DNA from: a virus
Lineage: Duplodnaviria; Heunggongvirae; Uroviricota; Caudoviricetes
IMG/VR virus record: IMGVR_UViG_2698536657_000018
Span: 1-9,313 of that record
Reading direction: 5' to 3' (one strand)
DNA length: 9,313 nucleotides
A program made the position numbers. This document shows positions 1 through 6,000 of this stretch, piece by piece. The first letter of the stretch is position 1; the number at the start of each line of letters is the position of its first letter.

Positions 1-3000
1 TCACCGCAGCAGCTCTCTGGTGGCGGTAATATCCCGGAGAATATCCCTGTGTTTGTTCAGTTCCCGCAGCGCGGCACAGACTCGCTCCCACTTCTGAACA
101 TCACTTTTCGCCCTGCGCAGCGCCAGGTTTGCCCTGCACAGGGACAGAAAAATCAGCTCATCTGCTTGCGTTTCGGTAAACGATGGCAACGACTGCACAA
201 TGTCCGCCACTGTTTCTGTTTTAATATCTTCCTGTGTTGCAGATTCCTGTACTGGTAACGCAACACCTGCTGGCTGAGGAAAGGCCTTACCATCATTTTC
301 CGTTACCGGCACGGCTTTCGGCTCTGCTGGTAAATTATCGCCCGGCATGCAGTAACGAAATTTACCGTTCTGATTTACGCGTGCCAGGCGTCCCGTTGCG
401 GTTACCACCGCCAACGTGGAAGCAACCTTGCGAATGCTAACACCGAACTTATCCGCCAGTTCCTCACACGTTTTAGCCCCCTCCTGACCGATAAACTCAA
501 TCATCATGTCTGCGGTAACTTTTTGTTCGACCTCCCCGGTCAGCACATCCGGTACTTCAGACTGTTCTGGCTGCTCTTCGGTTACCCCGGATTCACCTTC
601 GCCAGCCAGAAACCAGATGTGACCCGCTTTATCAACAACGCCATTTCTTTTGAGTTCCCACAGTTCGTTGAGAACCTCTTCACGACTGATATCAAGCCGC
701 TCAGCCAGTCCAACAGAGCTGGCTTTTCCCATTGCTTTCAGTGCGTCAAAAACGGTTTCCATTAAAATTTCCTCCTACAAAATCGCTTCTCAGATTCAAA
801 TAAAACCAGCTGCCTTCCGGCGTTCGTATTCCTGTTTCAGCCATTCAATTGGCGTTGGCCCTTTCGGGTGTTTCGCCCCTTCCAGTTGTCGTCTCACTGG
901 CGGAACACTCATCCCGTTACCAACATGCTTTGCCCATTTCGTCAGTTGCCGTTCCGCAAGTCGTTTTAACTCACCCTGCGTCATCTGGCGCTCAATCCCT
1001 CTGGTACGCATTTCGAGGCAGATGTGGTACAGCACAGGCTGTGGCCACGGGTATTTATCACTCCCGTCGTATCGCCAGGATTCATTGCGCCAGCGCCGGT
1101 ACTCTTCCATCACGGCATCCACCGTAAGACCAAATGGATTTGCCCCACTCTCCGAAATCAGCGCAACAAACTCAGCCAGGTCCGGGGGCCACGTTTCACC
1201 CGCCCGGCAGCGGTCCATGCACTGACGACAGACCTGCCGGATTTGCTGTTCAGTCATCGCACCAATCTGGGCAATCCAGAGCTTCGAAGGTGCGGCCCCG
1301 TTCTTCTGAGTCCAGCGGTTCGAATACACCTCCCCCATAAGCTCCCACAGCTTCCAGGCCGTTTCCGTTGCTGATAAATCCGTTGTCACGTTCCCACTGT
1401 TCGCGTGCTGCCCGGATTTCCTGAACTGCCCGTGATGCCGTGCCACCTGATGCTGCATGGCTTACCCCCTTGCTGACTGGTTTTACCTGTGCCCTGACGT
1501 GCTGCACGTGGCGGGCAAATTTCTGCTCCCACTGAACCTGCGTGAAAACCTTCCCCTCCGCCATCCAGTAATCCCGGAATGCGGCAAGCTCAGCAGGTGT
1601 AAATTCCGGCTCAGGCAGAGCCATACCCCACACTGCTGCCCGTTGTCGAAAATCCGACGACGGCTGCCAGACAGTAGTCATCGAAAATTTCCCGATCGGT
1701 TCGCTCAGGCCGTCCAGGTATTCAGGTTCGGCTGTCTGCAACGGCGCACCATGCGACTCACCGGTTGGAGCACTCTCGCGCATGCGCGCGTTATGTGTGG
1801 GGTTTAATTCTGTATCTGTATCTTTATCTGTCGTGACTTGTCGTGACAGATGCGTGACACGTCGTGACTCATCGTGACAATCAGCATCATATTTCCGCAG
1901 CTTTTCGCGCTCCCGCTGCGCTCTCTTGCGCTCTGCCGGGGATTTTGCCGTTTGCGAAACGTTACCATTGTCCTCTTTCAGCACCTGACGTTTTTCCCAT
2001 CCGGAAATAAGGTCACCATCCAGAACCCGCCCCTGCATTGCATGCAAAATTGAATCAATTACGTCTTCCGTCACATCAAGCGCACTTGCTAAATCTTCCG
2101 TCGTGACATCAATGTGACCACGTAGTGACACGCCGTGACATGTCGTGACATTTCGTGACGCGCTCACCAGAAGGTGGATATACACTGCCATCACTGTTGC
2201 GATTGGCTGTCCTGATACCCTGGCAATCGTTCGCCACTTGGGGTCATTTGGCATGTCATGCCACAATCTGAGCCAGGCATTAGCCATACTCACCTCTTCT
2301 GATACCGAACTTTACCCACGAACTTCCGGAAGAAATCCGGTATAAATATTGTTGGTCAATGCACAACAACAGCATTACCAGGCTGACCACCACTGTTAGT
2401 CAGGGTGCCCCAGGCGATCGCCGCTGCGACAAAATCATCCACATCTTTCACCAGCCGATCCCGTCGTTCGACGATCTCCCGGTAATATTCAGAACTGTGA
2501 CTGCGCATACGGGCCACCAGCAAAGGCGGCATCGCCTTTTCGATCGCCGGTAACAGCGCCTGAATTTTTTCAACAGCATCAGGGGTGTCCTTCTCCACCC
2601 AGCGGAAAATTTTCTGGGTATTACGGGCCAGGGCTTCCGGATGGCTGTCGTCATACAGTTCCGGGAACGTCATTCCCAGCTCGAAATACGCTTTGGTAAT
2701 TTTCGCAGCCGGTACTTTTTCGCCGTCCGGATGCGCCCAGACATTCATCGCCATGCGGATGTGTTCATGCTTGATTTTCATGAATCAACTCCCAGCGTGG
2801 GTTGTGTGTTAGCCTGATAGTCAACAGGTATGCCATCGGTTGGGTTGGGGTAAGTACTGCTATCAATCTCGTGCGGGGTCACTACCCACCCTGTTGCTTC
2901 ACACCAGCGTAAAACTTTCCCCCCCGTAAGTTTCGCCCGTCCAGTAATAACATGGCTTACCATCCCTTGGGTTACCCCAACAATTTCAGCAAAATCTTTC

Positions 3001-6000
3001 TGGGTTATACGGGAATGATGCAAATATTCTCCAAGATTCATTGTTCACCTCATGTTATGTGACCATGAATATTAATAGCATTGTTATTTTTAAAAGTAAA
3101 TAGCATCGCTATTTCAAAGAGATTAATAATCTTATTAGAATTGAAGGTATGAAAAGAAAACCCCTGTCAGAGATCGACCTGCAAGCCGCCCAGAGACTGA
3201 AAGAAATCTGGACGACGAAAAAAACTCAACTTGGGTTAACCCAAGAGCGTGCGGCAGAAATTCTGGGTTTTTCGACACAAGGGGCAGTAAGCCATTATCT
3301 AAATGGTCAGACACCTTTAAATCTAGAGGCTGTTATCAAGTTCGCTGGGTTGCTACAAGTTCCGCCTGAGTCAATTAGACCAGATATGGCAGACTTGTTA
3401 CGAATTGTAAGGATGTACCCCCAAGAACTGCAGCAGGATAATGTTGTCGCTTTACCCGCAGAGATGGAACAATCGGAAAACGAACTTCCGTTTAATATAG
3501 AACCTATAGAGCGAGATTTGATCCAGACGTTCAGGGCTTTCCCAAAAGAAGACAAAGAGAAAATGCTTAAGGAAATGAAGGAGAAAAAAGAATCAATTGA
3601 AGAAACCGTTGCGCGGTGGCTAGAGGCGCAAAAAGGTCGTCGCGCCTAATCTGAGGAGGTTAGAACATGAGTACAGTCCTTTCCCCGATAATTTCAGAAT
3701 TTGAAACAATCGAACAAGAAAACAGCTATAACGAATGGTTACGCACCAAAGTGGCAGCAAGCCTCGCAGACCCCCGTCCTGCAATTCCGCATGACGAAGT
3801 AATGGCTGAAATGGAAAACCTTATTGCGCAAATAGCTTCGACGAACAGGAGTGAGTAATGCTGCCCATTTTATGGCTACCTTCTGCGCGTGATGATTTGC
3901 GTCAGATCGTAGCCTATATTGCCAAGGAAAACCCTCCCGCTGCACGTAGACTAAAAATACGCATTGAAACATCAGTTTTGTCACTTACTGAACACCCTTA
4001 CCTGTATCCACCAAGCGAAAGAGCTCTAGGCCTTCGTGAGATAGTGACCCATCCTAACTACATAATACTTTACCGAGTAACAGCATCTAACATCGAGATC
4101 GTAAATGTAGTTCACTCACGAAGGCAGTATCCAAACAAAAGCTGTTAATCATTCCTACCAACAACCACCTTCGGGTGGTTTTTTTTCTTACCTCCAAAAA
4201 ACAATAGCATTACTATTTACAGAATAAAATAGCAGTGCTATTGTTTATTCATCACCCACCCTCCCCACAGAACGCAGGGCAATACTTCGAGTTACCAGGC
4301 AGTGGTCAGGGGGTAAGTAGCCAGCCCGAGGCGTAAGAACATGACGGCAGGGTTCAACTTTAATAACTATGCAGCAGGTTTTTGTTCCGCTACCCCGGCG
4401 TTAAGGGGAAATGAGGTCAACATGGATACTATCGATCTTGGCAACAGCGAATCTCTGGTATGTGGAGTATTCCCCAACCTGGACGGCACGTTTACCGCGA
4501 TGACGTATACCAAAAGTAAAAAGTTTAAAACCGAAGCTGGCGCGCGTCGCTGGTTAGCCAGAAACACTAACTGATTAGCACCAGTAAAAACAGGTTGCCA
4601 CTGGTTAATTTACCCTGAAAAGTCAGGGTATAACACGAAAGCGCACGGCGAAGCTCTTTCCCTTAGAAGGCTTGTCGTTAGATTTCTTCGAACGTGCGCT
4701 TCCGGTTGTGGCAATCCGCGAAATGGCGCGGCGGTAAGTATGGCTGGGGTTTCCTCCATTGCTCCAGAAAATGCACCGGGTTGTCAGGTTGACCATACGA
4801 TTAAGTGACAGCCCCGCCACAATACCCATGTGTAGTCTTTGGTGGCATCAGTTCTACTCCGTGACTGCTCTGCCACCCTTTTTAAAGTGAATTTTGTGAT
4901 GCGGTGAATGCGGCTAAGCGCACGCGGAACAGTTAAAACCGTAAAGTGGTCGTTTACGGGGCGTAACGGGCATACTTCTGTATTCCGGCGTTAATTGTTA
5001 ACTGGTTAACGTCACCTGGAGGCACCAGGCACCACATCACAAAATTCATTGTTGAGGACGCGATAATGGAAACGTTATTACCAAACGTTAATACGTCTGA
5101 AGGGTGTTTTGATATTGGTGTTCTGCTCAGTAACCGGGAGTTTACTGAAGATGCCATTAAGATGAGAAAATATGAGCCTTATCTTCTCAATGATAATTCC
5201 ATACTCTCCAGAATTGCCCTTCTTAAACTTGGTATTTTCGGAGGGCAGCAGTGACTTCTGCATTTGCACTGGTGATGACGGTTTTTCTTATAACGGGTGA
5301 GCCACAGAATGTGATTACCGGAATTTATGCCAGTAAAGAATCATGCCTCCGTGCAAGAGACGAGCAAAAAATTTCTGGCGAATGCCTCCCGTTAAAAAAA
5401 GTATCGCTGTACCTGAATAACGAAATACCGGCTGGATAACCCGCCAGCCATATTAACGCCATACCAACGGATTAAAAATGCCAGCAATGGCAGGGATTCG
5501 TTCACCCTGAAATCTGTAATGAGGTTAAAACAAAATGAGTAAAGTCTTTATTTGCGCCGCTATTCCTGACGAACTGGCAACAAGGGAAGAAGGCGCTGTG
5601 GCTGTAGCCACAGCCATTGAAGCTGGCGACGAACGCCGTGCTCGAGCAAAATTTCACTGGCAATTCCTGGAACATTATCCGGCTGCTCAGGACTGCGCTT
5701 ATAAATTTATTGTCTGCGAGGATAAACCCGGCATACCCCGCCCTGCCCTCGATTCCTGGGATACCGAATATATGCAGGAAAATCGCTGGGATGAGGAGTC
5801 AGCTTCCTTTGTACCGGTCGAACCTGAATCCGATCCGATGAACGTCAATTTTGACAAGCTGTCCCCTGAAGTACAGAACGCAGTCCTGGTTAAATTCGAC
5901 ACATGCGAAAACATCACCGTTGATATGGTGATTAGCGCACAGGAATTACTACAGGAAGACATGGCAACATTCGGCGGACATATCGTTGAAGCGTTTATGA

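Follow-up and report, generated by a model that had tools for sequence, protein, structure and literature searches.

We analysed a 9,313-nt stretch of DNA (IMG/VR record IMGVR_UViG_2698536657_000018, positions 1 to 9,313; hereafter the window) that covers the early genes and the immunity region of a lambdoid prophage. Two adjacent genes on its minus strand, encoding an 87-amino-acid (aa) helix-turn-helix (HTH) protein (2778-3041) and the 141-aa protein YdaT (2356-2781), are most probably the Cro-like and CII-like regulators that make up the rightward arm in a lysis/lysogeny switch of the lambda type, carried by an E. coli lambdoid prophage. Experiments on the CP-933P and Rac loci have already established the Cro/CII roles, and the window provides independent confirmation, from sequence only, that the labels "toxin YdaT" and "YdaS antitoxin" are misleading.

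A first-pass annotation of this DNA had described the two open reading frames (ORFs), and both are present on the minus strand as described, sharing the four nucleotides ATGA at 2778-2781. Its analogy with Cro and CII, including the placement of the pair in the cro-cII position of lambda, is borne out by the 89% identity of YdaT to its CP-933P counterpart, by the same operator at the same junction, and by the published work on CP-933P and Rac; the gene order, with the repressor gene divergent from the Cro-like gene, ydaT and the replication genes, is that of both lambda and CP-933P. The toxin-antitoxin operon that it saw on the opposite strand is also there, as the genes for a repressor, PaaA and ParE at 3149-4148 (PF21217, PF05016). 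The statement that the pair directly precedes O/P was right in part: there is a lambda-P family gene, but the first replication gene encodes a DnaT-domain protein that is not a member of the lambda-O family, and a 68-nt gap separates it from the ydaT stop.

YdaT, its operator and a predicted antisense promoter

The 141-aa protein matches PF06254 (YdaT_toxin) with a score of 39.6 bits (cutoff 21), and the PDB entries 8BT1 (E-value, E, 7e-82) and 3C4R (E 3e-77). The first of these is CP-933P YdaT, whose C-terminal helix, following a POU-like HTH domain, holds the tetramer together as a four-helix bundle (Prolic-Kalinsek 2023, PMC9986795). Within the recognition helix α3 (residues 50-63), 12 of 14 residues are identical between the two proteins and the family-invariant N54, Q56, I58, R60 and W61 are kept, and in the alignment all seven residues of the bundle core listed in PMC9986795 (I103, L110, V111, V114, F117, V118 and A121) are present in the window YdaT. 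A tetramer in solution, sub-micromolar operator binding and activation of an antisense promoter have been reported for CP-933P and Rac YdaT (PMC9986795, PMC8630535 and PMC11879457); by analogy with the 89%-identical orthologue, the window protein would be expected to share these properties as well as the lack of toxicity.

YdaT is an analogue of CII and not a detectable homologue: a PDB search with its profile returned 8BT1 and 3C4R and no other entry, and its hhalign comparison with lambda CII (the CII sequence having been entered by hand) gave a probability of 1%, with an alignment limited to I-x-R-W in the recognition helix. The profile comparison with CII structures that the first-pass annotation had proposed would therefore be expected to yield at most a very weak match, the Pfam search gave no match to the CII family PF05269, and we discarded lambda CII as a relative. 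Database names for YdaT are mixed: the window protein is "toxin YdaT" in both Pfam and RefSeq, the same protein is labelled "activator protein cII" in induced phages, the RefSeq name of K-12 ydaT is now DNA-binding transcriptional activator, and NCBIfam has no model by name for YdaT or for the lambda-P family protein.

The main site bound by CP-933P YdaT, TTGATT-N6-AATCAA, was footprinted at the ydaS end (PMC9986795). It has a single exact match in the window, TTGATTTTCATGAATCAA at 2771-2788 (OM, or the YdaT-box), where 0.06 matches with up to one mismatch would be expected. All 18 bp are identical to the CP-933P site, and the box lies astride the ATGA overlap and includes the start codon of ydaT as well as the stop codon of the gene before it. 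Using as the CP-933P-type reference an O157:H7 chromosomal locus (L003) found through a 32-nt primer from the mBio supplement, we observed 96.5% DNA identity over 2426-2792, which is lost directly past the box. CP-933P YdaT activates PRE933P, an antisense promoter at the border of ydaS and ydaT that is silent without it; the protein is not toxic and has no effect on PRM, PR or PL (PMC8630535). In Rac, according to Wons 2025 (PMC11879457), YdaT binds the near-identical box ATGATTCATGAAAATCAA, activates racR, and is toxic through the host gene rcsA.

On the plus strand at 2807-2815 lies TGtTAGCCT, the predicted extended -10 element of a PRE-like promoter that would depend on YdaT. If the start is placed ~7 nt past the TAnnnT hexamer, transcription would begin near 2822, with the operator centre near -42, and would run antisense through the Cro-like gene toward the repressor gene. 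An activator site near -42 is usual for contact with RNA polymerase beside the -35 region. The arrangement has the geometry of CII: a gene following the cro position, with a site at about -35 to -42 of an antisense promoter directed into the repressor gene.

We then compared 86 loci with YdaT at 84-100% identity and called the upstream gene in each; a scan of genome contigs for YdaT relatives gave four loci, and a scan of viral contigs supplied this comparative set. Read antisense to the Cro-like gene, all ten groups defined by the upstream partner carry a TAnnnT hexamer whose first base is 29.5-31.5 bp away from the centre of the box; in these sequences the motif has a background frequency of 1.8% per position. 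The hexamers include TAGCCT (window), TACAAT (CP-933P), TATCCT, TAACGT, TATGAT, TAAGTT, TAGTTT and TAGATT, with a TGn extension in five of the ten groups as read by eye. Given independent groups, our arithmetic puts the chance of ten out of ten in a three-position window at ~1e-12; nine groups are safely independent, because two P22_Cro groups have a common tail. Since the amino acids encoded at the hexamer differ (QAN, DCS, QDS), conservation of the -10 element is not due to coding constraint. The CP-933P hexamer falls within the published 120-bp PRE933P reporter fragment with YdaT-dependent activity. The hexamer TACGAT is found at the same distance in a "phage Rac" record with a DicA/DicC-type locus (L090 700-745), and in K-12 Rac (L091 1046-1102), where YdaT is ~32% identical, the hexamer is TATGAT, close to consensus, 20 nt beyond the YdaT-box and again antisense. 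The conserved element offers a precise, inexpensive check on where YdaT-dependent transcription starts, and it bears on the model of "activation from a distance" in Rac. In K-12 Rac itself, the box-proximal promoter, rather than the distal PracR4, may be the real target of YdaT.

A different use of the same site would be mainly negative, with YdaT acting as a roadblock or autorepressor on its own ribosome-binding site and start, limiting ydaT and the replication genes, and with no meaningful antisense activation. The box does cover the ydaT start codon and the upstream stop, the papers repeatedly speak of YdaT as a "CII repressor", the window -10 candidate is weak, with three of six consensus positions, and CP-933P YdaT leaves PRM, PR and PL unaffected; yet YdaT-dependent antisense activation has been measured in CP-933P (PMC8630535) and in Rac (PMC11879457), where ydaT expression was unchanged by YdaT binding at the box. 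A pure roadblock also would not require a TAnnnT hexamer at a fixed distance in all partner groups. We regard this explanation as unlikely, and prefer the assignment of YdaT as a CII-like activator.

The Cro-like protein, the repressor and their putative shared operators

The 87-aa protein is Cro-like by position and fold class. Its gene, with a GAGGTG Shine-Dalgarno sequence 5 nt 5' of the ATG, is a small HTH gene that stands first in the rightward operon, divergent from the repressor gene and beside putative shared operators. The protein matches Pfam HTH_3 (E 4.9e-6) as well as HTH_31 and HTH_26, and in the PDB search it gave marginal Xre/HigA HTH matches alone (E >= 0.03). The family label "YdaS" used in the first-pass annotation could not be retained: there was no match to PF15943 (YdaS / COG4197) at E<=0.1, a threshold reached in the same scan by CP-933P YdaS, Rac-type YdaS and the alleles of loci L048 and L007, and identity to CP-933P YdaS is 28% over 60 aa (pairwise E 1e-5) and confined to the HTH part. 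The models for lambda Cro (PF09048) and P22 Cro (PF14549) were not matched either, and we set aside membership in all three families. The C-terminal tail VTPHE..YPNPTDG.PV.YQAN is nonetheless common to the 87-aa protein and the PF15943 alleles L048 and L007. The closest phage homologue, at 56% identity, is encoded by the Stx2 phage Lyz12581Vzw, where it occupies the cro position, divergent from an S24-type cI. For the window allele itself, we infer a Cro-like activity.

The divergent control region between the 87-aa gene and the repressor gene spans 107 bp (3042-3148). The 15-bp palindrome AATAGCnnnGCTATT occurs at 3074-3088, 3099-3113, 4203-4217 and 4228-4242, four strong matches where 0.35 would be expected, and the starts are 25 bp apart within each pair, in the OR-like and the OL-like set alike; no third OR or OL copy was found at up to two mismatches. 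The palindromes that had been noted at 3074-3137 are thus real over 3074-3088 and 3099-3113, but 3114-3137 contains a weak inverted repeat only, which overlaps a promoter-like site. The OR-like operators (3074-3113) overlap a candidate PR on the minus strand (TTTACT as -35, TATTAA or TAATAT as -10), and the OL-like operators (4203-4242) overlap a PL-like promoter on the plus strand (TTTACA-17-TATTGT, 4216-4244) with a parallel layout. What seems to be the OL/PL equivalent, at 4203-4244, reads toward DUF1391, DicF and DicB. A PRM-like promoter, TTCAAA-17-TAGAAT, lies on the plus strand at 3113-3141, with its -10 TAGAAT at 3136-3141; the start predicted from it, 3148-3149, falls on the repressor ATG, and the repressor mRNA would therefore be leaderless, as the paaR2 and cI transcripts are.

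The 166-aa CI-like repressor (3149-3649, plus strand) is a hybrid. Residues 2-82 resemble the N-terminal domain of lambda CI (match to residues 3-82 of 1LMB, E 1.6e-9), the C-terminal 44 aa are 50% identical to the C-terminus of PaaR2, and about the last 44 to ~55 residues resemble the PaaR2/DicA C-terminus. No S24 peptidase domain was matched, and RecA-mediated cleavage of the repressor is therefore not expected. The genes paaA (3667-3858) and parE (3858-4148), both on the plus strand, form one transcript with the repressor gene, and a terminator (4163-4180, plus strand) directly follows parE. PaaA matches PF21217 PaaA2 (E 2.9e-22) and ParE matches PF05016 (E 4e-18), with PDB matches 3ZBE and 5CW7; a PaaA2-family antitoxin and a ParE toxin 3' of a regulator gene are what is expected of a PaaR-PaaA-ParE three-gene module.

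PaaR2, YdaS and YdaT are the functional counterparts of CI, Cro and CII in CP-933P (Jurenas 2021, PMC8630535). PaaR2 and YdaS footprint a 97-bp intergenic region and repress PR, PRM and PL, and the paaR2 transcript is leaderless by rapid amplification of cDNA 5' ends (5'RACE) (PMC8630535). The two experiments suggested by the first-pass annotation, a toxicity test and an electrophoretic mobility shift assay, have already been published for this orthologue, with YdaT not toxic and YdaS/PaaR2 bound at the intergenic operators (PMC8630535). The window resembles CP-933P in gene order, in the ATGA overlap, in its 89%-identical YdaT and the identical 18-bp operator at the junction, in the repressor-PaaA-ParE operon with its conserved repressor C-terminus, in having both OR and OL operator sets, and in a PRM geometry that would fit a leaderless repressor mRNA. 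Its immunity is different. The Cro-like protein has 87 aa rather than 100 aa and is 28% identical; the repressor has 166 aa with a lambda-CI-like DNA-binding domain rather than 123 aa, only the C-terminal 44 residues being shared; and the operators are AATAGCnnnGCTATT, two per site, rather than GTTTAGTAA-type repeats. PaaA and ParE have diverged from PaaA2/ParE2, the replication module consists of a DnaT-domain protein and lambda P rather than of an HTH protein and a DnaC-like ATPase, and the C-terminal tail of YdaT is different. Because the regulators and operators differ while the cassette is kept, we consider the window to be a heteroimmune relative of CP-933P with the YdaT cassette and a diverged PaaA-ParE. 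What sets the window apart is its immunity allele, in which this Cro-like protein and hybrid repressor go with the AATAGC palindromes. It combines the alleles of a known system in a new way, and in other respects the locus is a heteroimmune lambdoid immunity region of the ordinary kind.

The racR-ydaS-ydaT locus of K-12 Rac (Wons 2025; Krishnamurthi 2017; Bindal 2017) has the same architecture and nearly the same YdaT-box (ATGATTCATGAAAATCAA), and its tetrameric YdaT activates repressor transcription from an antisense promoter (PMC11879457). It differs from the window in that its YdaT is ~32% identical, in that a 22-nt gap replaces the overlap, and in that no toxin-antitoxin pair lies behind the repressor; in addition, Rac YdaT binds host rcsA and the racR-ydaS intergenic region and is toxic when expressed. 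With cro-cII of lambda, the pair shares its site between cI and the replication genes, a small HTH repressor gene in first position, and a second gene for an HTH activator that forms tetramers and binds over the -35 region of a promoter; this promoter depends on the activator and reads antisense, through cro and into the repressor gene. In contrast, homology of YdaT or the 87-aa protein to the lambda proteins was not detectable (no PF05269 or PF09048 match, and 1% by hhalign), and the YdaT site is an inverted repeat whereas that of CII is a direct repeat, TTGC-N6-TTGC.

From these comparisons, the switch in the window can be pictured as follows. The 87-aa Cro analogue would be made first, from the PR-like promoter in the 107-bp divergent region, and would presumably compete with the 166-aa repressor for AATAGCnnnGCTATT at OR (3074-3113) and OL (4203-4242). 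YdaT, the CII analogue, would come from the same mRNA, its translation coupled to that of the upstream gene at the ATGA overlap; it would assemble into a tetramer via its C-terminal helix and bind TTGATT-N6-AATCAA at 2771-2788. Sitting at about -42, it would then activate an opposite-strand promoter that would be weak on its own, the one with the extended -10 at 2807-2815, and the resulting PRE-like transcript would pass antisense through the Cro-like gene into repressor-paaA-parE, favouring the establishment of repression.

Several points weigh against this assignment. The function of the window allele is read from its sequence and from published relatives, and by analogy with Rac YdaT, which is toxic on over-expression, the window YdaT may have a growth phenotype. 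The 87-aa protein falls below every Cro and YdaS family threshold. The window hexamer TAGCCT, though it has the TG extension, matches three of six consensus positions, and its PRE could therefore be weak. As to the start site, one legend in the CP-933P papers puts the PRE933P start within OM. For Rac, PMC11879457 assigns YdaT-dependent activation to PracR4, at a distance of ~190 bp from the box, in a construct that appears also to have held the box-proximal TATGAT.

It is also conceivable that the window is a decaying remnant of a cryptic prophage, with intact regulator ORFs but a switch that no longer operates in its host. CP-933P and Rac are both cryptic, the repressor is without an S24 domain and hence would not support RecA-dependent induction, and the visible stretch is just 9.3 kb. 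On the other hand, the ORFs, operators, box and promoter-like elements are all intact and are 94-99.5% conserved in dozens of genomes: 3.4 kb of the window is 99.5% identical to the chromosome of E. coli strain JNEC-KY176, and at least 80% of this stretch is present in 49 of 5,426 complete E. coli genomes. Moreover, the same YdaT is found in induced phages, and CP-933P, although cryptic, has a working bistable switch (PMC8630535). We therefore find decay very unlikely.

Exchange of the upstream partner

In the comparative set, near-identical YdaT proteins stand behind at least ten groups of upstream partners. These comprise three P22_Cro-family groups, several YdaS-family groups (CP-933P type, Rac type and others), one HTH_17 group, and one HTH_3-only group, which is the type found in the window. 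The divergent repressors vary as well (S24-type CI of 212-238 aa, PaaR2, RacR and the 166-aa type), and the partner gene overlaps ydaT by 4 nt, by 17 nt or not at all, depending on the allele. The recombination joint just past YdaT's own site, together with the exchanged partners, is the behaviour expected of a CII-like regulator: YdaT travels with its own DNA site, not with a protein partner. PaaA-ParE lies beside YdaT in 26 of 77 loci, in three immunity types only, and the YdaT locus is therefore independent of that toxin-antitoxin pair.

The joints are also visible in the window itself. At ~2792, beyond the YdaT-box, the Cro-like side becomes unrelated to CP-933P, and a second joint, at ~2426 within the 3' end of ydaT, marks where the sequence below it diverges from CP-933P, so that the disordered C-terminal tail of YdaT switches together with the downstream replication module. 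In the IMG/VR locus L024 and seven other loci of its group, Rac-type RacR and YdaS are combined with a CP-933P-type YdaT that is 93-94% identical to the window's; because of this combination, the two YdaT subfamilies appear interchangeable behind one Cro/repressor allele. The contig of the cluster representative closest to 8BT1 (P0015) was considered as CP-933P and rejected, as it carries a P22_Cro partner and an S24-type CI repressor instead.

The exchange of partners bears directly on the older view of the pair as a type II toxin-antitoxin system, in which YdaT would be the toxin and the HTH protein its antitoxin, neutralising YdaT through direct contact and, as a DNA-binding protein, controlling the expression of its own operon. 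A cognate pair would be expected to co-vary; YdaT remains constant while its upstream partner is exchanged, which argues that the two are not such a pair, and the presence of at least ten unrelated upstream proteins is incompatible with a cognate neutralising partner. The small two-gene operon with its 4-nt overlap and HTH gene first does have the look of a toxin-antitoxin locus, and Pfam and RefSeq name YdaT as a toxin, but the fold of YdaT is that of an HTH DNA-binding protein, with a defined operator, and not that of a toxin (PMC9986795), and the locus always lies between the repressor and the replication genes. Sub-threshold similarity of the 87-aa protein to the HTH domains of HigA/HipB-type antitoxins is weak, and the protein consists of an HTH and a short tail common to other Cro/YdaS alleles, with no extra domain. 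Rac YdaS and YdaT are toxic on de-repression (PMC5700377 and PMC11879457), yet the latter explains the Rac toxicity by misregulation of host rcsA, and the 89%-identical CP-933P YdaT is not toxic (PMC8630535). With a DNA-binding fold, at least ten unrelated partners and, by analogy with CP-933P, a YdaT that would be non-toxic, the pair lacks the features of a type II system, and we find this explanation very unlikely.

For the Cro/CII-type arm, the survey suggests a broader proposition, to which we give about an even chance of being correct: that YdaT, its box and the box-proximal extended -10 antisense promoter constitute a portable establishment cassette, joined just beyond the box to any Cro/repressor allele. 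Every allele, that of K-12 Rac included, would then use a -10 element 20-22 nt past the box (class II) and not the distal PracR4, and the window would represent an uncharacterised immunity specificity. The comparative point, that the YdaT-box and a -10 element at fixed distance move as a cassette across unrelated immunity alleles, is modestly new.

Replication module and flanking genes

The replication module lies 3' of ydaT on the minus strand, and consists of the genes for the 345-aa, initiator-like DnaT-domain protein (1250-2287) and the lambda-P family protein (796-1257); a DUF1627 protein is encoded beyond them on the same strand (1-762). The iteron TCGTGAC has seven exact copies in the window against 1.1 expected. 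Counting (T)CGTGAC, the iterons form two clusters with 10-bp phasing, at 1831-1878 and 2101-2159, inside the DnaT-domain gene, and these clusters are probably the phage origin, located within the initiator gene as in lambda.

On the other side, the terminator after parE is followed in order by DUF1391, the DicF RNA, a putative DicB, a putative DUF1482 protein, an 823-aa exonuclease, an excisionase and an integrase. The DicF small RNA (4827-4878, plus strand) matches Rfam RF00039 at 61 bits against a gathering score of 48. The 62-aa ORF 3' of it (5066-5254) we take to be DicB, from its resemblance and from its position relative to the annotated dicB in locus L001, and a second 62-aa ORF (5251-5439) corresponds in position to the DUF1482 gene beside dicB in L001, L002 and L003. 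Toward its C-terminus, the 823-aa protein (5535-8006) carries an exonuclease domain of the Rv2179c-like 3'-5' type (E 2.5e-67); the protein occupies the position of recE in Rac, and is named 3'-5' exonuclease in RefSeq and exodeoxyribonuclease VIII in some phage records.

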